Of a stretch of DNA of 64,000 nt, positions 9,968-49,733 are shown piece by piece (positions within the stretch are counted from its first letter, which is position 1; each line of letters starts with the position of its first letter). The translations under genes were made by a program, and so were the position numbers. The DNA lies in assembly GCA_009015555.1 (NCBI GenBank), contig GCA_009015555.1_3613.1, one strand, 5' to 3'. A model generated the notes under the pieces. That model had not been told where the DNA came from, made no database searches, and saw only the letters and a program-made list of their open reading frames with translations. Source of the DNA: a phage.

Positions 9968-10621
9968 TCAACTTACTTTTGAAATTACCAGTTTTTGAAC
10001 GTAGCCCTGCAACAGGGCGTAAGTTACACCACCCACATAACTACCGCCGACAGAGAGTCTCTCTCCGGCACCGAACCAGTTGGGAACAGAAAAGTTCTGA
10101 ACTTCCCCGCTCACCATATTTCTCACACGGATCTGCCGAGAGTCCGGGTAAGTTTCGATCCGCAGATTAAAAACTTGGCCCTGATTACCATTGATCGAGC
10201 AACGAACATAATTTCCGCTGTTGTCTGTTGGGAACAATTGGTGCCCTCCAACCCCAACCATGCCATAATGCGCCAGTCCGGCGACGATCCTTGTGACGTA
10301 ATCGCCAGAACACCACACCATCTGGGTTGCAGAAGGACTAAGGCTTTGGAAAACAACCTCAATCACCATAGGATCTGTGGATAGATCCACTGAATACTGA
10401 GTTTGGAAATACCCTTGGCCTTGGGCAGGTATGAACTGCATGACCCTTCCAATCCCTGCAACATCGACTATCCTTGGGCCTGTGCCGACCAAAGAGAAGG
10501 TGTGGTTTTCAGACCAGTCCTTCAAAACAGTCTCGCCGAGAGATTGCCGTGTGGCATCCACGTAGAGAATGGCATCCTCTTTGCGAGATGACTTCCCTAT
10601 AATCATTATCTCGTTCATCAA
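9968..10621 (-). CDS. hypothetical protein
   Basis: 217-aa ORF; 4-nt overlap with the downstream gene. Confidence 0.55.
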   Translation of the reverse strand: MMNEIMIIGKSSRKEDAILYVDATRQSLGETVLKDWSENHTFSLVGTGPRIVDVAGIGRVMQFIPAQGQGYFQTQYSVDLSTDPMVIEVVFQSLSPSATQMVWCSGDYVTRIVAGLAHYGMVGVGGHQLFPTDNSGNYVRCSINGNQGQVFNLRIETYPDSRQIRVRNMVSGEVQNFSVPNWFGAGERLSVGGSYVGGVTYALLQGYVQKLVISKVS

Positions 10622-10989
10622 TTTCTCCGAGGTTTTAAAACACCTGATTTTGAAAGAGGGATCTCATCGGCATCTCTGCCTTTCTCTCCATCTTTCCCGT
10701 CCTTCCCGGCCTTTCCTGGTTTGCCCTCCGGGCCTGCCGGACCCGCTGGACCTGGCACATAAACATACTGCGGTTCAGTAAACGCTGCAATAAACAGCAG
10801 TATTGCCCAAGCAACACCATTCACCCACAGTGCAGGCCACATTGAAAAGAATACCGACAGCGCCAGAATCAACATCGTATTCCGATGTTCTCTCTTGCGG
10901 GCCACGAAGTAAGGGACCAGCCAGAACAGTACAAATACCCAGGCCGAGCCTGAGAACAACGACCACATCACATCGACAAACTCTGTCAT
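10618..10989 (-). CDS. membrane protein with collagen-like Gly-X-Y repeat
   Basis: Three hydrophobic helices, then GPAGPAGPEGKPGKAGKDGKDGEKG (8 G-X-Y triplets). Confidence 0.5.
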   Translation of the reverse strand: MTEFVDVMWSLFSGSAWVFVLFWLVPYFVARKREHRNTMLILALSVFFSMWPALWVNGVAWAILLFIAAFTEPQYVYVPGPAGPAGPEGKPGKAGKDGKDGEKGRDADEIPLSKSGVLKPRRN

Positions 10990-11282
10990 TTGATCAGCCC
11001 CTCTTGGATTTTAATTTGGAGGATCTCCGCATCGATCGAGTAGGTATTGCTGGTTCGGGTGTAATCTGCATCCCGGTATCGACACATCACACCTTTGGCC
11101 TCGCCGTCTCGCTGGACCACCCAGCTTGTGTCATAATTGGGTTGGCTCTTACACACCTTGTGTAATGCCACTACCTCGGTCGGCATCAGCGATTTCTTCG
11201 ACTCATAATGATCTGGTTTCCCGTCATCGAAAGGATTGCATCCCGAAAGCAGGAGCGCCGTTAATAAAATCAGTTTCTTCAC
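10986..11282 (-). CDS. lipoprotein
   Basis: GTG start giving KKLILLTALLLSGC (signal peptide plus lipobox). Track ORF begins 26 codons further upstream at a TTG. Confidence 0.5.
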   Translation of the reverse strand: MKKLILLTALLLSGCNPFDDGKPDHYESKKSLMPTEVVALHKVCKSQPNYDTSWVVQRDGEAKGVMCRYRDADYTRTSNTYSIDAEILQIKIQEGLIK

Positions 11283-11431
11283 ATCCACCCCCAGTATTTC
11301 GAAAGTTCTGTGGAGATCATGATCCCCACGACATAAGTCATTGAGAAAACCACGGTCCAATACATGAACCGGGTCCCAGCCATCGCTACCATAATGAACA
11401 ATATAACAAAAGTTTCAGGCGCGATCAACAT
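11279..11431 (-). CDS. small hydrophobic protein (50 aa)
   Basis: Hand-translated MLIAPETFVILFIMVAMAGTRFMYWTVVFSMTYVVGIMISTELSKYWGWM; stop overlaps the lipoprotein GTG (GTGA). Confidence 0.35.
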   Translation of the reverse strand: MLIAPETFVILFIMVAMAGTRFMYWTVVFSMTYVVGIMISTELSKYWGWM

Positions 11432-11844
11432 TTTGTTGCTCCCTTGCGACGTTTATCTTCATCTTCAATAGCCTCGTCTTCTGCCCGGGCCAAGATCTGA
11501 TAGATTGTCTCTGGATTGTCGAGGAACTCTGTATACTTCTTGATCCTCACTGCCAACTTGCCACGGATCTTACGCTCCTGCATCTGCTGGTTCTGCATGA
11601 AACCACGCTGGTACAGGATGAAATAGTATACCTGCTTTGCTCGATTACGATCGCAACCCAGTGCATGGGCGAAGTCATTGAAGCAGTCGCTGTCGTGTTT
11701 GACCATGAAAATGTCCCAGAACACCTCACGCGCTTTTGCAAGCTCCTCGGGAGTCACTTTTGGGAACTCCGGGTCGCCATAGCGTGGATGCTTTTTGCCA
11801 GCCCACTCGGGTTTTGCCGGATAAACTTTTCTTGTATTGCTCAT
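11425..11844 (-). CDS. hypothetical protein
   Basis: GAGGAG RBS before ATG at 11844; track start is an upstream TTG. Confidence 0.55.
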   Translation of the reverse strand: MSNTRKVYPAKPEWAGKKHPRYGDPEFPKVTPEELAKAREVFWDIFMVKHDSDCFNDFAHALGCDRNRAKQVYYFILYQRGFMQNQQMQERKIRGKLAVRIKKYTEFLDNPETIYQILARAEDEAIEDEDKRRKGATKC

Positions 11845-33576: not shown

Positions 33577-33842
33577 CTTGGCCTCGTATGTGAATGGTCC
33601 GGCACAACGTACTTGGAGATAACTCCGACCAGCTTGGTCCGGCACTGCTGGGTCGCACCATAGGTCTTAACGGTATCCATGATGTCGATCACCAGCTTGT
33701 TGAACAAATCCGGGCGGATTCGAGGAGTTTCACGCTCACGCTGTAAAAGCTCCTCAATCGCGCTCTCAGCGATTTCTGCCATTTGCTGGGCGTTTCCATG
33801 ACATGCCTCGTCAAAACGCTCCCAGTGGCGTTCTGCGGTCAT
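33573..33842 (-). CDS. hypothetical protein
   Basis: Start at internal ATG. Confidence 0.4.
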   Translation of the reverse strand: MTAERHWERFDEACHGNAQQMAEIAESAIEELLQRERETPRIRPDLFNKLVIDIMDTVKTYGATQQCRTKLVGVISKYVVPDHSHTRPR

Positions 33843-33849
33843 TCTGACC

Positions 33850-34014
33850 CTATTCTGCTGCTCGGTTTCCACGGACTTCGATCTCCAGCTTAATTGCCGC
33901 CAACATTTCTTCCAGTTCTGCTTTGTTCTTCTCCACACGGCGAAGATCATCACGGCCCAGATCACGCAGGGCCAGAAGGTGACTCATGGACAGATTGCTC
34001 AGGTCTTTAGTCAT
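33850..34014 (-). CDS. small coiled-coil protein
   Basis: Start at internal ATG with 8-nt overlap on the upstream stop. Confidence 0.3.
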   Translation of the reverse strand: MTKDLSNLSMSHLLALRDLGRDDLRRVEKNKAELEEMLAAIKLEIEVRGNRAAE

Positions 34015-34435
34015 TGAGAGACTCCTCATATTTTTCCACCAGAGCATCAACAAAGTACGCATGGTGAACCCACGCAGATGCACATCCGTCTTTGTGAAGC
34101 TCTTCGGAGATTTCTCTACGAAGTTCTGCCGCAGGACCAACAATATTGCGGACGTGTTTGTCAAACGACTCCCAAGCGTTGGCCCGGCCCTCTTTGCCGG
34201 GGTCTCGTTTCGTCGTGTCAATTACGAAACAACCCTCTCCCCGGCGAAGCTCGTCGGAAGCAGAACGGTACATGGACCCGGTTTTACCGGAGAAGAAAAC
34301 GGATTTCTCCGTCATCTTCGTGATCACTGCCATCTCGAATGGCTTGGCCCCGGCATTTCCCCGGGAAAAGGCGATGTGGTCACCCACACGCGCCTCGATT
34401 CCGAAACAGTCCTTAATCACCACACACCTCAACAT
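34007..34435 (-). CDS. hypothetical protein (start uncertain)
   Basis: Frame open 34007-34519; start placed at an internal ATG to limit overlap. Confidence 0.4.
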   Translation of the reverse strand: MLRCVVIKDCFGIEARVGDHIAFSRGNAGAKPFEMAVITKMTEKSVFFSGKTGSMYRSASDELRRGEGCFVIDTTKRDPGKEGRANAWESFDKHVRNIVGPAAELRREISEELHKDGCASAWVHHAYFVDALVEKYEESLND

Positions 34436-39382: not shown

Positions 39383-39705
39383 TACAGGCTCCCCGGCAGT
39401 ACCAGTTTAGGACCCTCGCCCTTCTTAGATTCACGGATACGCTCACGAACGTATACCTCGATGTCCGTCGGACGCCACAGTTCAACAGCGACAACCTGGA
39501 ATCGACCAATGTGGGCACCCGGTTGTTTGTCCATGTGGTTAGCCATCAGTTTGGCGCTGTCTTCGTCAGCAAACACAGCTTTCACCACAATCGGATGACC
39601 GTCATCGGTCTGCCCGAGGCTCATGGAAGGCACATTGTGCCCGGCGGCGGTGTCGTCGATTGCATACATCAGGGTGGTGCCGCCAACGTTATTAGTCAGT
39701 TCCAT
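39382..39705 (-). CDS. hypothetical protein
   Basis: GGAGA RBS before internal ATG (MELTNNV). Confidence 0.4.
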   Translation of the reverse strand: MELTNNVGGTTLMYAIDDTAAGHNVPSMSLGQTDDGHPIVVKAVFADEDSAKLMANHMDKQPGAHIGRFQVVAVELWRPTDIEVYVRERIRESKKGEGPKLVLPGSL

Positions 39706-39910
39706 CAATTTTCTCCACTTTGCTACCAAAAGAGGCCATAAAACAACGGCCCTCGTCTCCACCGAACGGGATCATCACGGTCCCGCCGATGATAATTGCA
39801 TCATCACTTGCCAGGATCGGCTGGCTCATGATCGGCTTGCCGAACAGGTCGCAATCACACACGTATTTGAACGTGTCGCCAACCTTGATGTCTTGTGCCA
39901 ACACTTGCAT
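39692..39910 (-). CDS. hypothetical protein
   Basis: Start at internal ATG (MQVLAQD). Confidence 0.4.
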   Translation of the reverse strand: MQVLAQDIKVGDTFKYVCDCDLFGKPIMSQPILASDDAIIIGGTVMIPFGGDEGRCFMASFGSKVEKIDGTD

Positions 39911-39914
39911 CCGA

Positions 39915-40034
39915 TTACCCCACGCAGACTTCGTACCAGCCGCATTTTGTGCATTCACGAACAAAAGCGTGTACGCTGCCCTTGGTAATGAACTTATGCT
40001 CACAATTTTGCTGCTTCACAGATTTTACTGTCAT
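39915..40034 (-). CDS. tiny zinc-ribbon-like protein (39 aa)
   Basis: MTVKSVKQQNCEHKF ... CTKCGWYEVCVG; ATGA overlap with the upstream stop. Confidence 0.3.
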   Translation of the reverse strand: MTVKSVKQQNCEHKFITKGSVHAFVRECTKCGWYEVCVG

Positions 40035-40375
40035 ACAACACCCCTCGGTTTTACCAGTTCCAGATCTGATTGCGGGATGAAGTAGAACCCGCTGCGATAG
40101 AACCATTCGTACCCGTCGCTACCTTCCTGTACCTCGGCATCGCTCACATAAAACGACTTGCCGTTGAACTTGTCACGAACAAAGTCGCCACGGGTAAAGC
40201 CCGGGATGCCACACTTACGAACGTGATAAAGCTCATGACGAACTCCCTCGAACGCCCCACGCAGATCCATAACCTCACGAAGCTCGAACTCTACGTCCTC
40301 TTCGTCGTTACCGATCCCGTGGATTTTGGCATCAATCCGGGTCAGCAGGTCCTCTACTGTAGCCCAATCTGTCAT
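40031..40375 (-). CDS. hypothetical protein
   Basis: 114-aa ORF. Confidence 0.5.
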   Translation of the reverse strand: MTDWATVEDLLTRIDAKIHGIGNDEEDVEFELREVMDLRGAFEGVRHELYHVRKCGIPGFTRGDFVRDKFNGKSFYVSDAEVQEGSDGYEWFYRSGFYFIPQSDLELVKPRGVV

Positions 40376-41103
40376 CCTTTGTCCTCCAACTCCAGAGGCT
40401 TCATGCCCAGCGCCTTGATCCCGGTGCGGGTGATCAGGCTGTTGAGGGACGCTTCAATCTCTGCATTGGCACGGGCCATGACCGTCTCCGAGTGCTCAGT
40501 GAAGGTATGGAGTGCATATGCCGTTACTTCTGGCAGCTTGGCATGAATGGTCTGGAACTTCTCCATCGCCGCCTGCAACTCTCCCTTGTTGGCCTTGCCT
40601 TTGGCAATCAATGCCGACAGCGCTTCCAGACCCTCTGCATGGCGTTTCATCATGATCTTGAGGGATGCCTCAATCTCACGGTTGGCCTGCTCGGTACTGG
40701 TGTTCTGCCCATCAATCAGAGGAAGGTTACCCTGCCCATGAGGGGTAATGTAACGCAAGGTACACGGTACACCATTCCCGCTGTGGGATGCAACCAAACC
40801 TGCCCACTGGTAAGCTGTCAGTTCCAGTTCCAGCACACGCCCTCCACGGCTCTGTGGCTGGCTGCGGTAATTAGGAATACCGTAGGCCGTCTCTTCATAC
40901 GCCAGGTCGATACGCAGCGCTATGCGCTCATTGTGGATGATGTCCGAACCAAACATCTCCGTATTGCCACCGGACGGGTGGGTCAGGGTGATGCGACCAT
41001 ACGCCGGGTGCTCTTGGATAATACGATCACAACCTGAACCCGTCATTTCAGAACGGATCGTTGGTCGTTCCTTCGGGTAAGGTTTGAACTCCTCTTTACT
41101 CAT
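40372..41103 (-). CDS. hypothetical protein
   Basis: 243-aa ORF; ATGA overlaps on both sides. Confidence 0.55.
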   Translation of the reverse strand: MSKEEFKPYPKERPTIRSEMTGSGCDRIIQEHPAYGRITLTHPSGGNTEMFGSDIIHNERIALRIDLAYEETAYGIPNYRSQPQSRGGRVLELELTAYQWAGLVASHSGNGVPCTLRYITPHGQGNLPLIDGQNTSTEQANREIEASLKIMMKRHAEGLEALSALIAKGKANKGELQAAMEKFQTIHAKLPEVTAYALHTFTEHSETVMARANAEIEASLNSLITRTGIKALGMKPLELEDKG

Positions 41104-41303
41104 TTCGCCACCTTAATTACATAGTCGGAAGTTTTCTTGGTGGTTTTCGTCTCACCGTAATGGGAATACTCTACGATGACCATCCCCATACCTTTAGAAA
41201 ACCCTTTCACGGTGCCACGGGTCAAGGCGTGGCGGTTATATTCGGTGAAGGCGACATCATCACCCTCTTTCAGTTCATTGCCCACAAAATCACGCATTTG
41301 CAT
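41100..41303 (-). CDS. hypothetical protein
   Basis: GAGGAG RBS before internal ATG (MQMRDF). Confidence 0.4.
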   Translation of the reverse strand: MQMRDFVGNELKEGDDVAFTEYNRHALTRGTVKGFSKGMGMVIVEYSHYGETKTTKKTSDYVIKVAK

Positions 41304-41535
41304 TGGCTCGTTGCTCCTCAAAGAACAGTTGGTCTGCCAGTGCATTAAGGTGATCCGCCATCTGGCGGGCCTGCTCACGGGTAAGTCGGATACCTGCACT
41401 ATCACGGTCCCCGTTTTCAATGTCTTTCATCCAGAGTTGGATGAGAATCATACCAGGGTTCGCTTTTGATTCCATCACCTCGATGTCACCACGATAGAAA
41501 CGAGTATCTTCTTTCAAATTCAGGTACTTTTCCAT
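41290..41535 (-). CDS. hypothetical protein
   Basis: 81-aa ORF. Confidence 0.45.
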   Translation of the reverse strand: MEKYLNLKEDTRFYRGDIEVMESKANPGMILIQLWMKDIENGDRDSAGIRLTREQARQMADHLNALADQLFFEEQRANANA

Positions 41536-42731
41536 TATTTCTTCCCCTTACGTTTAAATTTATTGTGGCCCTTACCACGGCGGAGTCGCCCCTGCTCCCA
41601 GTCACGTGCTGGCTTGTCCAGCTTCGCAATGTTGGCGAAGTCTTTGAAGTTCCACGTGTCGAAAGAGTCAACACATACAGACAGGCCATGCTGATCTGCG
41701 ATAATCCGCTTCACCATCCCGCTGATTCCGCCGCCACCGACAATTGCGACCCTGCGGAGCTTGCTTTCGTACATCTCGATGGCTTTCTCCACAGAGATCT
41801 CGTCAAGCTGCGACATGTCGAGGTCTTCCTTCTTGGCACCGTACATCAAAGAGTACAAAGCAGTCTTCAATGCAGGCTTGGTGCCGAAGTAGATCTGCAC
41901 TTTATACTTTCTTGCGAGCGCTGTCAACTGAGACATTACGTCTGCCGCCGCACGGGCCACAATGTTGGCATCGGGGATTGCTTCGATGAACATAGGTGGC
42001 GCAGGCCAGCCGATCATCTCTTCAATTTCTTTGTTGCGCTCCAGAGTCTCTTGCAGGCGCTTCATCTCTTGTGCCTCTTCCACCAGGTCGGTGATCTTGA
42101 AGATCATCGGATGCTTACGGACCTTCAGCGCCGGGTCATCGCCGGAGATGTGCAGGTCCGGGCGAGGCAGGTCGGCCTTGCAGAGTTCTTCCAGACGAGA
42201 CCAATCCATCTCGCTCTCCATGCAGATAAAGGCATCACCATCTTTAGGTGGCATGTACGTCTTGTTCAGGCGTGGCATGTGGTGCATGTCCGGCAGGAAC
42301 GGATAATCGAAACGCCCGGTAGAGCTACGGCCCTTGAGGATCTCGAAGGTTACAAATTCCTCTTTCGGTGCATTGACCTCATCAAAACAAACCAAGTTGA
42401 TGTCACGAACTTCCGGCATGTTGGCAATCTTGTCCTTGAGAGCTTCACGCTGCTCGGCGGTCTCGACCCCGTGCGCCGCACAAACCTGGTCAATGTCGAT
42501 AACCAAAGTGCGATTACGGATATCCTTCGGCAGGTCAGAATAGTCGATGCCAGACACGGCGTCTTCGACAACCTTTTTCGCCTTCTCCATATCAAATCCC
42601 AAGCCCAACTCACGTTGCTTACGGATGTTTTCCATGTGGTTCTTGAAGAACGGATCTTCAACGAAGACATCATCTGCCAGCGCGGAACGAACTTCTTCGA
42701 AAGTCTGACCTTGGGATTTGTAATTGTTCAT
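41535..42731 (-). CDS. hypothetical protein (398 aa) with Gly-rich GGGGISG loop
   Basis: Start MNNYKSQ with GAGGAAA RBS and own promoter; track start lies inside the promoter. VAIVGGGGISGMV near the C-terminus. Confidence 0.6.
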   Translation of the reverse strand: MNNYKSQGQTFEEVRSALADDVFVEDPFFKNHMENIRKQRELGLGFDMEKAKKVVEDAVSGIDYSDLPKDIRNRTLVIDIDQVCAAHGVETAEQREALKDKIANMPEVRDINLVCFDEVNAPKEEFVTFEILKGRSSTGRFDYPFLPDMHHMPRLNKTYMPPKDGDAFICMESEMDWSRLEELCKADLPRPDLHISGDDPALKVRKHPMIFKITDLVEEAQEMKRLQETLERNKEIEEMIGWPAPPMFIEAIPDANIVARAAADVMSQLTALARKYKVQIYFGTKPALKTALYSLMYGAKKEDLDMSQLDEISVEKAIEMYESKLRRVAIVGGGGISGMVKRIIADQHGLSVCVDSFDTWNFKDFANIAKLDKPARDWEQGRLRRGKGHNKFKRKGKK

Positions 42732-43816: not shown

Positions 43817-44109
43817 GATGCCTCCGGAAACGAATAAAAGGTTCTCACAACCACAATCTCAAGGTTAATACCCGGATTGTCTCTTGTCAAGGCTTCTTTT
43901 TTCCTTTCTGCATTTTTCAGTTTGGAGAAAACTTGGAACTTCTTGTTGATGACCGGAAGGGTGTCAGACCCAACCATCTTTATCGCAAAGTACACATCTC
44001 CGCCACGCAACCCTTGGCCCAGCTTATGCTGGAACCAGGCGTTGAACTCATCAGGCGTGGTGTCAATACCTGCGAATCTTTTCAGCCACAGCCTCAGCTT
44101 ATTCATCAT
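43813..44109 (-). CDS. hypothetical basic protein
   Basis: Start at internal ATG. Confidence 0.45.
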   Translation of the reverse strand: MMNKLRLWLKRFAGIDTTPDEFNAWFQHKLGQGLRGGDVYFAIKMVGSDTLPVINKKFQVFSKLKNAERKKEALTRDNPGINLEIVVVRTFYSFPEAS

Positions 44110-44626
44110 AGTCCCCTTTCGCATAACGTGGGCCACGAAGTTCAAGGCCCGTCTTATCCAGTGAATGTGGGGATATCATGCCATTACTGTTCCAGAACTT
44201 CAAGTCTTTTTTCACCTGCTCCGCCTTTCGGTCCACGAAAGCCGCAACGATGTCGGGGTTTGTCTTCGGCATTGCCCGGTACACAGCACTGCGGGCATTT
44301 TCAAACTGGTCCTCGATAATCTTCAACTGATCCATCATTTCCAGTTCGTCCATTGCCTCTTTACACACGCAGCAATGACCTTTGGAGAAATACTCCCGGC
44401 TATCCTTGAAGTGGTCCCAACGCTCACCTTGGATAGGGAGGGCCATACGCCCACAGTAAGCACAGACGTGGGTAGATTTGTCAGACAGGACGGTGGTAGG
44501 GCGGATGCCTTCCTTTGTACTGTTCCAGCCGTAATGGTGACCTTCCCTGCCATACATATAAGAGAAGAATTTATAGGCGCGTTCATCGACGTGCTCTTCG
44601 TCACGATTTTTGGTACGTTCGAACAT
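44099..44626 (-). CDS. Cys-rich hypothetical protein (first gene of the leftward block)
   Basis: AAGAGGAA RBS; promoter upstream; CAYCG ... HCCVCK. Confidence 0.55.
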   Translation of the reverse strand: MFERTKNRDEEHVDERAYKFFSYMYGREGHHYGWNSTKEGIRPTTVLSDKSTHVCAYCGRMALPIQGERWDHFKDSREYFSKGHCCVCKEAMDELEMMDQLKIIEDQFENARSAVYRAMPKTNPDIVAAFVDRKAEQVKKDLKFWNSNGMISPHSLDKTGLELRGPRYAKGDYDE

Positions 44627-44658
44627 ATTTTCGTTCCTCTTTTGTGTTTGATGGTGGG

Positions 44659-44687
44659 ACTATACCGAGTCTCGATCGGGAAATCAA
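44659..44687 (-). promoter_or_regulatory. sigma70-type promoter heading the leftward block
   Basis: Minus strand TTGATT-17-TATAGT; spacer contains CGATCGAGAC, the motif repeated at 55.5-55.7 kb. Confidence 0.6.
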
Positions 44688-44750
44688 CCCTTGCATCGTG
44701 TTTTTGTTCATGGTACTTTATTGTTCACTCAACATGAACAGGAGATTACT

Positions 44751-45314
44751 ATGAACAAAGTATTATCCCCGGCAGAGCAGCTTGCCATGATGATTAAGTT
44801 GGCTGCAACACACCACATGCAACAGTTTGATAAGGGCGGGCGTCCTTATGTTCTGCACGTCCTGAAGGTAATGCACTACCTTAAGGTAAAGGATGACGAC
44901 GAACTGAACTGTATTGCCGTGGGCCACGACATCGTTGAAGATACCCCGGTACAACCCTGCGATTTGGAACGGCTGGGTATGTCCAACAGGGTTATCTCTG
45001 GGATCGCTCGGCTGACCAAGGTAGAAGGTCAGACCCACGGCGAATACCTCAAAGGTGTCCTGGAGAGTTATGATGCCTGCCGTGTTAAGCTGGCAGACCT
45101 GCGTCACAACACCGATATCCGCCGTCTGAAAGGACTGCGTAAAAAGGACTTGCAGCGAATCCAGAAATATCATAAAATGCACATGCAGATTAAAGACATG
45201 ATCGCATGGTACGAAAACAACCATTTGAGCATGTTCTCTTTCCCGGGCGATTATTTTTCTGCCCGTGATGAGCAGGTGAAATCAATCATGGAGAAAGAAT
45301 ACGATGCGGATTAA
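44751..45314 (+). CDS. HD-domain phosphohydrolase, (p)ppGpp-hydrolase (SpoT/RelA HD)-like
   Basis: AGGAG RBS. H..H ... GHDIVEDT, resembling the HD motif of alarmone hydrolases. Confidence 0.65.
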   Translation: MNKVLSPAEQLAMMIKLAATHHMQQFDKGGRPYVLHVLKVMHYLKVKDDDELNCIAVGHDIVEDTPVQPCDLERLGMSNRVISGIARLTKVEGQTHGEYLKGVLESYDACRVKLADLRHNTDIRRLKGLRKKDLQRIQKYHKMHMQIKDMIAWYENNHLSMFSFPGDYFSARDEQVKSIMEKEYDAD

Positions 45315-45465
45315 GGTTTTAGATGCCCCTCTGGGGCATAAATTCGACCCGGACAAGCACTATCTGGTTTACGGGACACACGGCTATGCCTTCGTTTTTG
45401 ATGACGACTGTGAATCTTGCTTTTTGAGCGATATGGAATGGGAGGAAGTGACAAGTGAAAGTTGA
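45304..45465 (+). CDS. small hypothetical protein (53 aa)
   Basis: Hand-translated MRIKVLDAPLGHKFDPDKHY..; overlaps both neighbours. Confidence 0.3.
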   Translation: MRIKVLDAPLGHKFDPDKHYLVYGTHGYAFVFDDDCESCFLSDMEWEEVTSES

Positions 45466-45661
45466 AATCATTGAGCGCGGTACTGAGGTGATCTTGGTAA
45501 GCCGAGATACTGCGGTCAACCCGGGGTTTATCGTCCCCCGCAAAAACGAGCGAATCTGCGCCCACGGAGATAACTATTTTGTCCGTGAGGTTAACCATTA
45601 CTACTACCGTGCCATCCCTGGTGAAGATGATTTCATTGAGATTTTGGTGGAGGCAGAATGA
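45455..45661 (+). CDS. hypothetical protein
   Basis: GTG start 7 nt after GGAGGAAG. Confidence 0.45.
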   Translation: MKVEIIERGTEVILVSRDTAVNPGFIVPRKNERICAHGDNYFVREVNHYYYRAIPGEDDFIEILVEAE

Positions 45662-46188
45662 AAAAGACACTAAGCATTAAACCTGTTATCTCCACATACC
45701 TCGGTTGTCCTGACCGATACGGGAGTGCCGAGGTTATGGACGATGGTGATTGGTTGGACCTCGAAGAGGACAAGCAATACCCTATCACTCGTTTGGGTTG
45801 CCTGATCAACGGCAAAGAGCCGGAGGAGACGTACTGCATGTACTACTTCCTCCAAGCAATGAAGCCCGGCTATAAGGGCGATTATCAGGACGGTTGGACG
45901 TGGAACACGTTCTTTACCTGTTCCTGCGGTCACGGCGGTTGCGCCGGGTATCACGAGAACGTCCGTATCCACCGTAAAAAGGCTACCGTCCGGGTCATGG
46001 GTAAGGTATCCGACGGTTATAAAAACGGCGTGGTGGGCACTGGGGAGGCCGTGGTGTACTTCGATAAGAAGGAGTGGGATGCGGTCCGTGATTACTACAT
46101 GGACCTGTTCCGCAAGAACCCGGATGGCATCTTCCAGGATAACGAAATCTTCTTTACCGGGCGTTACGGCCTGAAAGCATGGGGTTGA
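45658..46188 (+). CDS. hypothetical Cys/His-rich protein
   Basis: 176 aa; CSCGHGGCAGYH. Confidence 0.55.
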   Translation: MKKTLSIKPVISTYLGCPDRYGSAEVMDDGDWLDLEEDKQYPITRLGCLINGKEPEETYCMYYFLQAMKPGYKGDYQDGWTWNTFFTCSCGHGGCAGYHENVRIHRKKATVRVMGKVSDGYKNGVVGTGEAVVYFDKKEWDAVRDYYMDLFRKNPDGIFQDNEIFFTGRYGLKAWG

Positions 46189-46190
46189 GA

Positions 46191-46805
46191 ATGAAGCGTA
46201 CCAAAGTAATCAACAAGGCGCGATTCCGTAAATCCTTTCTGGGGTTTGCTGTCGCGGCTGTTGTAACCTTCACCCTGTCCGGCTGTGAGCAAGCTGACGA
46301 AACGGTGAAACTGTACATGAACTCTGAGCAGTGTGCCAAAGAAAGCGGAAATACGCTCGAACAGTGCCAAACTGCGGAGAAAGAGGCCCAGAAGGTTGCC
46401 GCAGAAACGGCACCGAAATTTGGGACGTATGCCGAGTGTTACGAAGAGTTTGGCAGTATGTGCCAACATAACTCGGCGGCTGCTGCCAGTACGGGCGGGG
46501 AATCCCCGTGGATGCCTCTGATGATGGGTTACATGCTGGGCAATATGATGGGGTCAAGTAACTCCTATCACGCAGCACCGATGTACCAGAGCCGTTCTGG
46601 TCAGTGGGTTGACAACAAGGCCCGGTCTTACGACGTGAAGCCGGGGAAATCGTTCAAAGTAACGAAGTCTGCCATTAAGCCAAAGGTTGAGGCACCGCGA
46701 TCCACTTGGTCCGGTTCCAAATCCGGCTTCTCCTCGTCAAAGACAACCACCCGTGGCGGGTTCGGTTCCTCTGTGGGGCGTAGTAGCAGTTCTTTTGGTG
46801 GATAA
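46191..46805 (+). CDS. lipoprotein
   Basis: MKRTKVINKARFRKSFLGFAVAAVVTFTLSGC signal plus lipobox; Gly/Ser-rich C-terminus. Confidence 0.55.
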   Translation: MKRTKVINKARFRKSFLGFAVAAVVTFTLSGCEQADETVKLYMNSEQCAKESGNTLEQCQTAEKEAQKVAAETAPKFGTYAECYEEFGSMCQHNSAAAASTGGESPWMPLMMGYMLGNMMGSSNSYHAAPMYQSRSGQWVDNKARSYDVKPGKSFKVTKSAIKPKVEAPRSTWSGSKSGFSSSKTTTRGGFGSSVGRSSSSFGG

Positions 46806-46810
46806 AAGTA

Positions 46811-46838
46811 TTGACTTATCAGATGGCCCATATATAAT
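46811..46838 (+). promoter_or_regulatory. sigma70-type promoter with -10 inside a palindrome
   Basis: TTGACT-16-TATAAT; the -10 sits in the loop of GGCCCAT...ATGGGCC. Confidence 0.65.
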
Positions 46839-46870
46839 GGGCCTCATTGACAACAAAGAGGAGAAATTCA

Positions 46871-48109
46871 ATGCAGCAGACTTACAAACGTACTGACCAA
46901 ACCATGTTTAAGAAACGAATCAGTATCCGACAGATGGAAGATCTGATCCGCCTTGGTGCCCGTATCGGTAAAACCACTTTCTTCTTCGGTGGTGCAGGTC
47001 TCGGTAAGTCCCAAAAAGTGTTGCAGGTAGCCAACAACATGTTCCCCCACCGCATCGGGGACAACCTGTGTGACGTTCGCCTGTCCGACAAAGAGCCGCA
47101 GGATATTGCAGGTATCCCGGTCCCGGTAACCTATTTCGATCCGGTTCAGGGCAAAGAAGTTACCCGTACTGTGTACGCATGTCCGAGCTTCTGGCCTACA
47201 GACCCGAACTGGGAAGGTATCGTATTCCTGGATGAACTGCCGAACGCAATGCTGGGCACTCAGCACTCTGCGTATCAGGTTATTCTGGACCACGTTGCAG
47301 GTGACCACCGCTTCCCGAAAGGTTGTGTGTTCGTTGGTGCAGGTAACCGTGACACCGATAACGCAGGCACCACCGAAATGCCTGGGCCGCTGGTTAACCG
47401 TATGATCATGGCAGAGGTTGAATACAATCTGGATGTGTGGATTGAGGACTTCGCAGTCCCATTCAAACTGCACCCACACGTAATCGGCTTCCTGAAGCAG
47501 TTCCCGGAGCATTTCTACACTGGTGACGTAGAGAAGCGCTCTACTCCGGTGTTCGCATCACCTCGTCAGTGGAAAACTGTTTCTGACATTCTGTACGATT
47601 ACGAAGTACAGAAGAATGAGTACATCACCGAGATCGCTATCGCGGGTTCTGTTGGTGAAGGTCTGGAAACTGCGGTTCTTGCGTACCACTTACGTGCCGC
47701 TGAACTGCCGAAAGTTGAAGACATCTTCTCCGGTAAGGTGAAAAAGCACGAACTGTCTCGTGAGAAGAACGACCTGGTTTACGTACTGGCACAGACCTGC
47801 TTACGTCAACTGGAGAAAGAAGTGATGGACAATGGCATGAATGATGAGATCTTCATCGAACGTGCTTCTAACTTCCTAAACTTCATGTTCAACAACTATT
47901 ACAAGGCGAACAAAGACACCATGATCGCGCTGATGATTGGTATCTTCCGTGCATCCAATACGGATCAACAGGCGATCCTGAGCCTGAACCCGAAACGTAC
48001 CAAGATGATCCCGGCGCTGCGTAAGAACTGCGAAGCTGTTATGACTATCGTAATGGAGTATCAGACTCGTTATGGTAAAATCATGGAGGATTTCAACGTT
48101 AAAGGTTGA
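46871..48109 (+). CDS. MoxR-type AAA+ ATPase
   Basis: GAGGAG RBS. Walker A GGAGLGKSQ; Walker B VFLDELPNA. Confidence 0.8.
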   Translation: MQQTYKRTDQTMFKKRISIRQMEDLIRLGARIGKTTFFFGGAGLGKSQKVLQVANNMFPHRIGDNLCDVRLSDKEPQDIAGIPVPVTYFDPVQGKEVTRTVYACPSFWPTDPNWEGIVFLDELPNAMLGTQHSAYQVILDHVAGDHRFPKGCVFVGAGNRDTDNAGTTEMPGPLVNRMIMAEVEYNLDVWIEDFAVPFKLHPHVIGFLKQFPEHFYTGDVEKRSTPVFASPRQWKTVSDILYDYEVQKNEYITEIAIAGSVGEGLETAVLAYHLRAAELPKVEDIFSGKVKKHELSREKNDLVYVLAQTCLRQLEKEVMDNGMNDEIFIERASNFLNFMFNNYYKANKDTMIALMIGIFRASNTDQQAILSLNPKRTKMIPALRKNCEAVMTIVMEYQTRYGKIMEDFNVKG

Positions 48110-48133
48110 CATCACAATATAAGCTGATAGAAT
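48106..48133 (+). promoter_or_regulatory. candidate promoter ahead of the VWA gene
   Basis: TTGACA-16-TAGAAT overlapping the MoxR stop codon. Confidence 0.4.
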
Positions 48134-48167
48134 GGGGTCATCTTTCGAGATGGCCCCTTTTTCTTTT
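48134..48167 (+). terminator. terminator-like hairpin / leader stem-loop
   Basis: GGGGTCATC-TTTCGA-GATGGCCCC followed by TTTTTCTTTT, between the MoxR stop and the VWA RBS. Confidence 0.6.
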
Positions 48168-48176
48168 GGAGGAAAT

Positions 48177-49733
48177 ATGTTCGACAATATCATGAGTGCC
48201 GAGGAGCTTGAGCTTGCCAACGCCAATACAGAAGAGGCAGAGAAACTCCTTGAGGCTGCAAGTCTTCAACTGATGCGCTACAAACCTTTCTATGGTGTTA
48301 TGTTGGCGTCAATGCCGATTATCCGTGCCACAGAGACCATCAACACGATGGCTACCAATGGGCGCGACCTGTTCTATTCTCCGGAATTTGTTGCCGGGAT
48401 GTGCGATAAGCGCAAGGCGCTGGTAAAACAGCGCATTGACCAGCAAATCACCGACAAGAAGAAGAATGCTGAGATGAAGTTGATGATCGATGTGTTCTAT
48501 CGTAGAAAGACTGCCCGTGAGGTGGCCTTGGTGTTGGAGCACGAGTGTGATCACGTGGTTTCTGAGCACATGTACCGTGGAAAGGGTTACAACTTCGCGC
48601 TGTTCAACATTGCTGCCGACCACCGTATCAATACGAACGCTGTTCTTAACCACACAACGAATAATGAAATGGGGACAGCGTGGTTCCCTCTGGGTGCCAA
48701 AACAGTGTTCGACCCAGGCAAAGAGTTCGGCTTCATGAAGTGGGCATACTGTGACTTCCAGTATGCAGATATGTATGCCGAGCAGATCTATGAGCTTCTC
48801 GTTAAGCAGACCCCTCCCCCTCCGCCGAGCGGTGGTGGCGGTGGTGAATCGGGAAGCGGAGAGGAAGGTCAAGGTGATTCCGGTGGTCAGGGTAATGGCC
48901 CAATGGGTACTGACCAACACCCGAATGCAGACGGGACCTTCAGTGAGCAAGATGGGGAAGACGATCTGTCCAAAGCAATGGGCACTGACCCGGGGGCTAT
49001 GAAGCCGCTGACCCAGGATCAAAAGAACTATAACGACACGGTAATGCGTCGGGCAATCGAGAACGCTGTTCAGGCAGCGGGCAAGGGAGCGCCAGCGGAT
49101 GCTCGTAAGTTTGTGGAGGAGGCAGGAAAGCCGAAGGTTAACTACCTGCGACTGTTACGTCGGACAATTGAGCGGCTGTTCAAAGACAACGTTTCATACC
49201 GTCGTTTAAACCGCCGTAGCTACTCCCTGACGCGATCTTTACGTCAAGCAGGGCATCTTACTTCCCGGCAGACGATCGGCCTTCCTTCGTACACTAAGGC
49301 TAAGACAATCCGTGCTCACGTATTCTTCGACGTGTCTGGATCTTTTACTGATGATTTGCTGGCTCCGACCAAACGTGAGATCAAGGGCCTGTGCAACCAG
49401 TACGAGGACTTTGAGGTCACTATGGCGGCATGGTCCACAAAGGTTGGTAATATCTGTACTTACACGAAGAAGAACCTGAAGGAGATTGATAACTACAAGA
49501 TCAAGACTACCTACGGGACCGATGTACAGTGCGTGTTCGAATGTCTTGATAATCTTGACAAAGAACCCGATCAGATTGTAATCTATACAGATGGTTACTT
49601 CTCTGATGTGTCCAATGTTAAAAACTGGGCCGAGAAGTATGGCAAGAAGACGCTGTGGATCATCCTGGGCCGTCACGGACCGGAATGGACCCCTCCGTTC
49701 GGCACTGCCATCGACTTCGACAAATATCTGTAA
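48177..49733 (+). CDS. von Willebrand factor A (VWA) domain protein with MIDAS motif
   Basis: GGAGG RBS. MIDAS D-x-S-x-S (VFFDVSGSF) and TDG (IYTDGYF); Pro/Gly-rich linker. Confidence 0.8.
   Translation: MFDNIMSAEELELANANTEEAEKLLEAASLQLMRYKPFYGVMLASMPIIRATETINTMATNGRDLFYSPEFVAGMCDKRKALVKQRIDQQITDKKKNAEMKLMIDVFYRRKTAREVALVLEHECDHVVSEHMYRGKGYNFALFNIAADHRINTNAVLNHTTNNEMGTAWFPLGAKTVFDPGKEFGFMKWAYCDFQYADMYAEQIYELLVKQTPPPPPSGGGGGESGSGEEGQGDSGGQGNGPMGTDQHPNADGTFSEQDGEDDLSKAMGTDPGAMKPLTQDQKNYNDTVMRRAIENAVQAAGKGAPADARKFVEEAGKPKVNYLRLLRRTIERLFKDNVSYRRLNRRSYSLTRSLRQAGHLTSRQTIGLPSYTKAKTIRAHVFFDVSGSFTDDLLAPTKREIKGLCNQYEDFEVTMAAWSTKVGNICTYTKKNLKEIDNYKIKTTYGTDVQCVFECLDNLDKEPDQIVIYTDGYFSDVSNVKNWAEKYGKKTLWIILGRHGPEWTPPFGTAIDFDKYL

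Follow-up and report, generated by a model that had tools for sequence, protein, structure and literature searches.

The window analyzed here is a 64,000-nucleotide stretch of phage DNA (contig GCA_009015555.1_3613.1 of GenBank assembly GCA_009015555.1) that carries, at positions 44751 to 45314, a gene for a predicted metal-dependent hydrolase. By its sequence and its modeled structure, the encoded protein is a single-domain hydrolase in the superfamily of RelA/SpoT homologs (RSH), that is, a small alarmone hydrolase, and is of the Aph1-like type. On balance, we lean toward the view that this Aph1-like hydrolase serves as a counterdefense against toxic small alarmone synthetases (toxSAS) of the host. 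Both the activity of the protein and counterdefense as the reason for its retention are what we infer from relatives, conserved residues, and gene context.

The source phage is a member of the genus Certrevirus (Vequintavirinae). The 2.2 kb surrounding the gene share 92.7% nucleotide identity with Cronobacter phage CR3 and 80 to 92% identity with other Certrevirus phages of Cronobacter, Enterobacter, Klebsiella, and Pectobacterium. The window protein is 97% identical in amino acid sequence to CR3_108, which is annotated as a "putative metal dependent phosphohydrolase." The two genes differ by 16 synonymous and 5 nonsynonymous codons, indicating purifying selection. We recovered 2662 homologous proteins at E values of ≤1e-5 from a metagenome and genome collection, and 284 phage records include a matching protein, among them T4-like phages of Aeromonas and temperate phages of Streptococcus, Pasteurella, and Aggregatibacter. 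The protein falls into PHROG families 990, 30929, and 37235. Based on the many homologs, the matches in phage records, the pattern of conservation relative to CR3, and a confident AlphaFold2 model, we conclude that this open reading frame (ORF) is a real gene and not a chance ORF.

Family, fold, and catalytic center

The NCBIfam profile TIGR00691 (spoT_relA) matches the hydrolase region of the protein with an E value of 2.3e-10. A phmmer search against PDB sequences returned Aph1 (7SMG) as the top match (E value, 1.3e-16; query residues 12 to 149 aligned to Aph1 residues 9 to 143), with further matches to RelSeq (1.2e-8), several Rel/SpoT proteins, Mesh1 (3e-4), and PaSAH (0.085). An AlphaFold2 model built on an alignment of 60 homologs reached a predicted local distance difference test score (pLDDT) of 92.4 and a predicted template modeling score (pTM) of 0.88. 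Foldseek superposed this model on 7SMG with a template modeling (TM) score of 0.90 (normalized to the target) and a root mean square deviation (rmsd) of 1.6 Å over 139 columns at 30% identity; for PaSAH, Mesh1, RelH, SpoT, and Rel, TM scores ranged from 0.56 to 0.70 and rmsd values from 3.6 to 12 Å. All 31 Foldseek matches in the PDB at E values of ≤1e-3 were small alarmone hydrolases or Rel/SpoT proteins. Aph1, from Bacteroides caccae, is thus the best match in both sequence and fold and, like the window gene, is phage encoded.

Residue correspondences come from aligning the protein with fragments of Aph1 and RelSeq in MAFFT, and the roles of active-site residues are those described previously (PMC10083569). 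All of the catalytic residues are kept: H36, H59-D60, E63-D64, D116, and N120 correspond to RelSeq H53, H77-D78, E81-D82, D144, and N148. The 60 homologs show no variation at H59, D60, E63-D64, D116, and N120 and at least 90% conservation at H36. SpoT/Rel, Mesh1, and PaSAH share the HD fold and these catalytic residues with the window protein, which differs from them in that the guanine recognition residues are replaced and the core is more compact. Unlike SpoT/Rel, it also lacks a synthetase or regulatory domain; neither Pfam nor NCBIfam gave a match to the RelA_SpoT synthetase domain within its 187 residues. PADLOC returned no hit for the protein.

A first-pass annotation, made from the letters of the window and a list of its ORFs, had described an HD-domain protein resembling a small alarmone hydrolase. 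The spoT_relA profile, the PDB sequence matches, the Foldseek results, and the catalytic residues all bear this description out, and the motifs that it quoted are present (H21-H22, H36, and G58-H59-D60-I-V-E63-D64-T65). It had also named HD_4 and SpoT profiles as a check. The latter recognized the protein, and no unrelated HD subfamily was matched; the Pfam HD_4 model (PF13328), however, aligned to residues 16 to 73 only and scored 15.8 bits, below its gathering cutoff of 27.2.

This subthreshold score, together with the generic annotation of CR3_108, could be taken to mean that the protein belongs to an unrelated HD subfamily (a dNTP triphosphohydrolase, a cyclic nucleotide phosphodiesterase, or a tRNA repair phosphatase) and that its likeness to alarmone hydrolases is superficial. 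We give this explanation almost no credence. Several close homologs carry precomputed PF13328 hits, all significant sequence and structure matches are RSH hydrolases, and the RSH-specific ED pair and N120 are kept. Pfam, NCBIfam, the PDB sequence search, and Foldseek gave no match to a dNTPase, an HD-GYP protein, or any other HD family, and the unrelated family was rejected. The low HD_4 score is a matter of that model's limited sensitivity in this clade and does not argue against homology.

Substrate recognition

The Aph family was defined by Ahmad et al. in 2023 through the C-terminal region of Aph1 (Y90 to E143) and a six-residue signature comprising D24, R96, D116, R119, K133, and Y134 (PMC10083569). 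The equivalents in the window protein are D27, G102, D122, R125, K139, and Y140, so that five of the six signature residues are kept, both specificity residues included; 19 residues are identical within the Y90 to E143 region. D122, R125, and Y140 are invariant in the 60-sequence alignment, and D27 and K139 are at least 90% conserved. In Rel enzymes, an arginine stacks on the guanine (RelSeq R44 and TtRel R43), and R119 of Aph1 was proposed to occupy the space that the O6 carbonyl of guanine would need (PMC10083569). The position of RelSeq R44 is occupied by D27 in the window protein, an aspartate as in Aph1 D24, and that of RelSeq T151 by R125. The D24R/R119A double mutant of Aph1 gains ppGpp hydrolysis, and all 12 purified Aph1 homologs hydrolyzed ppApp, with only 2 of the 12 showing modest ppGpp activity (PMC10083569). 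Based on D27, R125, and the (p)ppApp specificity of Aph1, the nearest characterized relative, the base pocket sequence suggests that the substrates are of the adenosine-based (p)ppApp type and not (p)ppGpp.

The same residues bear on the possibility that the protein is mainly a (p)ppGpp hydrolase, which would collapse the host stringent response and keep transcription, translation, and nucleotide synthesis at full rate. The protein does share its superfamily with the hydrolase domains of SpoT and Rel, and its relatives in phages POP15, Ro1, and BIS47 are annotated as guanosine-3',5'-bis(diphosphate) 3'-pyrophosphohydrolases. Moreover, phages can be restricted by the stringent response, against which phage countermeasures have been reported (bioRxiv 10.64898/2026.01.27.700999). 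We nonetheless consider this role unlikely: the guanine-stacking arginine of Rel is an aspartate here, R125 takes the RelSeq T151 position as in Aph1, no hydrolysis of ppGpp by Aph1 itself could be detected, and activity on ppApp only was seen for 10 of the 12 purified homologs. The likeness to Aph1 is also far above that to any ppGpp hydrolase, in sequence and in fold. One further argument in favor of ppGpp as a substrate comes from ATfaRel, which belongs to the same subfamily (PbcSpo) as an enzyme of Salmonella phage PVP-SE1 and degrades ppGpp as well.

MESH1-type hydrolases raise another alternative. These enzymes dephosphorylate NADPH and also bind PAPS (PDB entries 5VXA and 9CHY are among the fold matches), and metabolic promiscuity has been reported for an orphan small alarmone hydrolase from a bacterium (PMC9765508). 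The window protein might likewise act on some other adenosine metabolite phosphorylated at the 2' or 3' position, such as NADPH, pAp/PAPS, or an adenosine-3'-pyrophosphate signal, and so contribute to nucleotide or cofactor economy or to the quenching of an immune signal. NAD salvage and MazG-like genes of the phage show that nucleotide pools are manipulated, in keeping with such a role. However, similarity to Mesh1 is weak (E value, 3e-4; TM score of about 0.65 with an rmsd above 6 Å), and the demonstrated phenotype of the PVP-SE1 ortholog is toxSAS neutralization, which makes this alternative quite improbable.

The PVP-SE1 ortholog and a proposed counterdefense role

Salmonella phage PVP-SE1 (Vequintavirinae, genus Seunavirus) encodes gp220 (YP_004894027), which is 56.6% identical to the window protein over residues 4 to 155. 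The PVP-SE1 gene order (divergent junction, thymidylate kinase, hydrolase, a few small genes, and MoxR-like ATPase) matches the arrangement in the window. The gene for gp220 comes second in its block and overlaps the thymidylate kinase gene before it, whereas the window gene is the first. At 169 amino acids, gp220 has a 7-residue N-terminal extension and lacks the C-terminal helix at residues 165 to 181. Both proteins stand alone, and they share the same catalytic residues and the same five of the six Aph1 signature residues.

Jimmy et al. (2020) reported that a PVP-SE1 hydrolase, when coexpressed, neutralizes CapRel, PhRel, PhRel2, FaRel2, and FaRel, i.e., all five validated toxSAS, and proposed that incoming phages could bypass alarmone-based defense by such hydrolases (PMC7229694). 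Searches of the whole PVP-SE1 genome with a family hidden Markov model, Aph1, and RelSeq identified gp220 as the sole ORF resembling an RSH hydrolase. A second PVP-SE1 hydrolase as the enzyme tested in 2020 was considered and rejected, as all three queries match gp220 alone. The main text gives no accession; with a single such ORF in the genome, gp220 is probably the construct that was used. The window protein is an ortholog of gp220, and Jimmy et al. assigned the PVP-SE1 enzyme to the PbcSpo subfamily. The idea in the first-pass annotation that the protein removes nucleotide products used in abortive infection fits the PVP-SE1 work, and the other half of that idea, degradation of (p)ppGpp with a block of the stringent response, is made less likely by D27 and R125.

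Four of the five neutralized toxSAS toxins pyrophosphorylate the 3'-CCA adenosine of tRNA. MESH1 and ATfaRel restore aminoacylation of tRNA pyrophosphorylated by FaRel2 (bioRxiv 10.1101/2021.04.30.441581), and the hydrolase of phage SSU5 is described as removing the tRNA modification (PMC11559606). ATfaRel of Cellulomonas marina and PaSpo of Salmonella phage SSU5 are both single-domain RSH hydrolases that neutralize toxSAS as type IV, product-degrading factors, including action on the tRNA 3'-pyrophosphate. The gene for ATfaRel adjoins that of its toxin, FaRel, and the enzyme degrades both ppGpp and ppApp; PaSpo is in a different hydrolase subfamily.

Under the counterdefense reading, the hydrolase would be the product of the first cistron in a rightward operon, and the enzyme, as a metal-dependent 3'-pyrophosphohydrolase, would strip the 3'-pyrophosphate from the adenosine products of host toxSAS. 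These products would be of two classes, (pp)pApp made by FaRel/Tas1-like enzymes and tRNA pyrophosphorylated on the 3'-CCA adenosine by defense toxins like CapRel, PhRel, and FaRel2. An adenine-selective 3'-pyrophosphohydrolase would fit both (pp)pApp and the 3'-pyrophosphate on tRNA A76. Removal of the pyrophosphate would restore ATP pools and tRNA charging, so that abortive infection would no longer stop phage production. CapRel systems occur in Enterobacter (PMC13423816), and Enterobacter is a host genus of close relatives of the window phage.

Search for a cognate toxin

Aph1 homologs of temperate phages provide self-immunity beside MuF-Apk2 and IapK (PMC10083569 and PMC12226406), and the window gene could in principle protect the phage from a (p)ppApp-synthesizing toxin of its own. 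The gene for Aph1 sits in such a prophage toxin-immunity module (MuF-Apk2, the Tis1-like IapK, and Aph1), and a comparable module is visible in Pasteurella phage Pmp13 (L013:2683-4935), where a portal gene, a 540-amino-acid MuF protein, a 72-amino-acid ORF, and a 144-amino-acid HD protein follow one another in this order. Identity between this last protein and the window protein is 35%.

We found no comparable partner for the window gene. phmmer searches with full-length Escherichia coli RelA and with its synthetase region gave no match better than an E value of about 1 in the six-frame ORFs of the window and of the whole CR3 genome, and the E. coli RelA query found no RelA-like ORF among those of PVP-SE1. 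A phmmer search with the Pmp13 MuF-Apk2 toxin gave no match to six-frame ORFs from the window, from CR3, or from PVP-SE1. Eight Pfam families, none of them a synthetase, were recognized among 43 CR3 proteins that lack an annotation and are at least 137 amino acids long. No synthetase or toxin domains were seen in the neighbors of the hydrolase gene, and the annotations of CR3 and PVP-SE1 include no MuF gene. These searches used single sequences and Pfam and could miss a very divergent synthetase. Pfam recognizes the MuF domain of the Pmp13 protein but not its C-terminal Apk2 toxin domain, so screens based on Pfam miss this class of (p)ppApp synthetase toxin. The RelA, Pfam, and MuF-Apk2 searches taken together largely refute self-immunity to a phage-borne synthetase toxin, and the position of the gene outside the head module also speaks against it; we regard it as very unlikely. 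In contrast to the Aph1 gene in its prophage module, the window gene, judged by these sequence searches, is best described as an orphan hydrolase of a large virulent-type myovirus, with no cognate toxin detected in the phage.

Observations that weigh against counterdefense

Several points count against adenine-directed counterdefense. The identity of gp220 with the published construct is itself a deduction, since the paper's text carries no accession. Jimmy et al. placed the PVP-SE1 enzyme in PbcSpo with ATfaRel, a degrader of ppGpp as well as ppApp (PMC7229694), so a specificity prediction from the signature alone may be wrong. Within that signature, R96 is replaced by G102; the residue is also glycine in gp220 and in the homolog of Pectobacterium phage PcCB7V, and R96 is the single signature residue not placed near the Aph1 active site (PMC10083569). 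We found no infection-level knockout test of any phage small alarmone hydrolase in the searchable literature, and a search for Vequintavirinae together with ppGpp yielded nothing beyond the genome description of a Pseudomonas phage.

A structural difference from Aph1 adds to these points. The Aph1 protomer is compact, with eight helices, and lacks the additional helices that other small alarmone hydrolases have at their N and C termini; Aph1 forms a tetramer through its termini, and the C-terminal helix of those other enzymes is said to be incompatible with this tetramer (PMC10083569). The window protein has a C-terminal extension of about 37 residues that is absent from Aph1 and from phage homologs of about 150 amino acids, and its helix at residues 165 to 181 is confidently modeled. 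With this extra helix, its oligomeric state may differ from the Aph1 tetramer.

The gene has also been altered in relatives that infect Pectobacterium. In PcCB7V (L002:5752-6993) and, going by coordinates, in CB7 and phiTE as well, it is a 413-amino-acid ORF. After the first three codons (MNK), shared with the window gene, the PcCB7V ORF is interrupted in frame by ~226 inserted codons with a match to HNH homing endonucleases (phrog_953; E value, 2.4e-73), and the hydrolase domain 3' of the insertion is 63% identical to the window protein. By its sequence, the ORF looks like a homing endonuclease gene fused in frame to the host gene; an intein was rejected on the basis of the termini of the insertion. 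In DU_PP_IV (L011:2406-3369), the HNH part is kept at 99% identity, and a deletion has removed fusion residues 202 to 293, among them the His/His-Asp metal site. The C-terminal remnant lies in another frame and is annotated as a 118-amino-acid "metal dependent phosphohydrolase" (PHROG 37235). The deletion of the metal site and the change of frame indicate that the hydrolase has decayed in the DU_PP_IV lineage; DU_PP_I likewise has a naturally truncated gene. To judge from these sequences, the catalytic half has been lost in some Pectobacterium relatives and the gene is dispensable on some hosts, which is the last of the points against a counterdefense role.

A possible tRNA-end toolkit

CR3, in the part of its genome not represented in the window (L007, positions 10122-11438, 44372-48373, 39550-42282, and 33702-34064), and PVP-SE1 (L009 and L010) also encode a tRNA nucleotidyltransferase (CCA-adding enzyme), 18 to 24 tRNAs, nicotinamide phosphoribosyltransferase and PRPP synthetase for NAD salvage, and a MazG-like pyrophosphatase. 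PVP-SE1 additionally has two RNA ligases. Together with the hydrolase, the CCA-adding enzyme, tRNAs, NAD salvage genes, MazG-like protein, and RNA ligases resemble a tRNA repair and antidepletion set.

We therewith raise, as a speculative variant that we would not expect to hold, that the hydrolase belongs to a phage toolkit guarding tRNA 3' ends. Its substrate would then be pyrophosphorylated tRNA or an adenosine-3'-pyrophosphate immune signal and not a free alarmone, and the C-terminal helix of the Certrevirus proteins would bind RNA or a partner. If true, this would make the protein a broad-spectrum, product-erasing antidefense enzyme.

Gene start, promoter region, and neighboring genes

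Coordinates of the hydrolase gene and associated features are collected in Table 1. The hydrolase frame in the program-made ORF list runs back to a TTG at 44691. The sequence favors the ATG at 44751 as the start, because the annotated start in CR3 (CR3_108) is the equivalent one and because it carries a ribosome-binding site. The upstream gene is on the - strand, so the hydrolase gene opens a + strand block, as the first-pass annotation had noted.

Table 1. Features of the hydrolase gene and adjacent sequence, in window coordinates
Feature	Coordinates	Strand	Description
Divergent intergenic region	44627-44750	.	124 bp, from ORF layout; between leftward gene 44099-44626 and hydrolase gene
Ribosome-binding site AGGAG	44740-44744	+	6 nt before ATG; read from sequence
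Alarmone hydrolase coding sequence	44751-45314	+	ATG to TAA, 187 aa; ortholog of CR3_108 / CR3_gp108; Aph1-like HD domain plus C-terminal extension
N-terminal active-site segment	44814-44858	+	H22, D27-K28-G29 (base recognition position), H36 (metal ligand, RelSeq H53)
HD metal-binding motif H59-D60 and catalytic E63-D64 (GHDIVEDT)	44925-44942	+	Invariant in 60 family members
D116, N120, D122, R125	45096-45125	+	D116 metal ligand, N120 ribose contact; all four invariant in 60-sequence alignment
K139-Y140	45165-45170	+	Equivalent to Aph1 K133-Y134, pyrophosphate-side contact
C-terminal extension, residues 150-187	45198-45311	+	End of long helix and further helix 165-181; from AlphaFold2, alignment, and homolog lengths
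53-aa ORF, phrog_15304 (E 3.5e-34)	45304-45465	+	Overlaps hydrolase stop by 11 nt

The promoter of the rightward block presumably lies within the divergent intergenic region. A sigma-70 consensus scan of these 124 bp found no + strand promoter that satisfied the consensus criteria and a single site on the - strand (44687-44659). Just 5' of the ribosome-binding site, at 44695-44738 on the + strand, is the arrangement TGTTCA-N11-TGTTCA-N7-TGAACA, in which one hexamer occurs as two direct copies and one inverted copy. From its sequence, this set of repeats could be a candidate operator or a phage-specific promoter element.

The 53-amino-acid ORF that follows has an annotated counterpart at the corresponding position in both P7_Pc and DU_PP_IV, and based on its overlap with the hydrolase stop, the two genes are probably cotranscribed. 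Four small genes separate the hydrolase gene from the MoxR-like ATPase gene at 46868-48109, and the hydrolase gene is situated among early-type small genes. Two genes upstream of the MoxR-like ATPase, a 208-amino-acid protein (46179-46805, + strand) matches DUF1190 (PF06693; E value, 8e-35) and has a lipoprotein-like N terminus and a Gly/Ser-rich tail. A strong terminator-like hairpin lies 3' of the MoxR-like ATPase gene, at 48134-48157. The divergent neighbor (44099-44626, - strand) is a 175-amino-acid protein of phrog_13698 for which Pfam gave no match; its Cys-rich motifs (CAYCGR ... GHCCVCKE) are suggestive of a zinc-binding protein.

Implications

The gene was already annotated in relatives of this phage, its family and fold and the idea of countering toxSAS have been published, and an ortholog was tested by coexpression. 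New here are the placement, by sequence, of the hydrolases from Vequintavirinae in the Aph1-like group of adenine type, the evidence from the searches above for an orphan gene, and the C-terminal extension specific to Certrevirus. The current view is that small alarmone hydrolases allow a phage to remove what toxSAS abortive infection systems such as CapRel, FaRel, and PhRel produce, and in the searchable literature the evidence for this role in phages is limited to rescue by coexpression in E. coli. The window gene offers a clean, catalytically intact orphan example in phages of Cronobacter, Enterobacter, and Pectobacterium, for which natural loss-of-function relatives exist. Given its Aph1-like recognition residues, adenosine 3'-pyrophosphates would replace (p)ppGpp as the expected substrates, and D27 and R125 are the specific residues to mutate.

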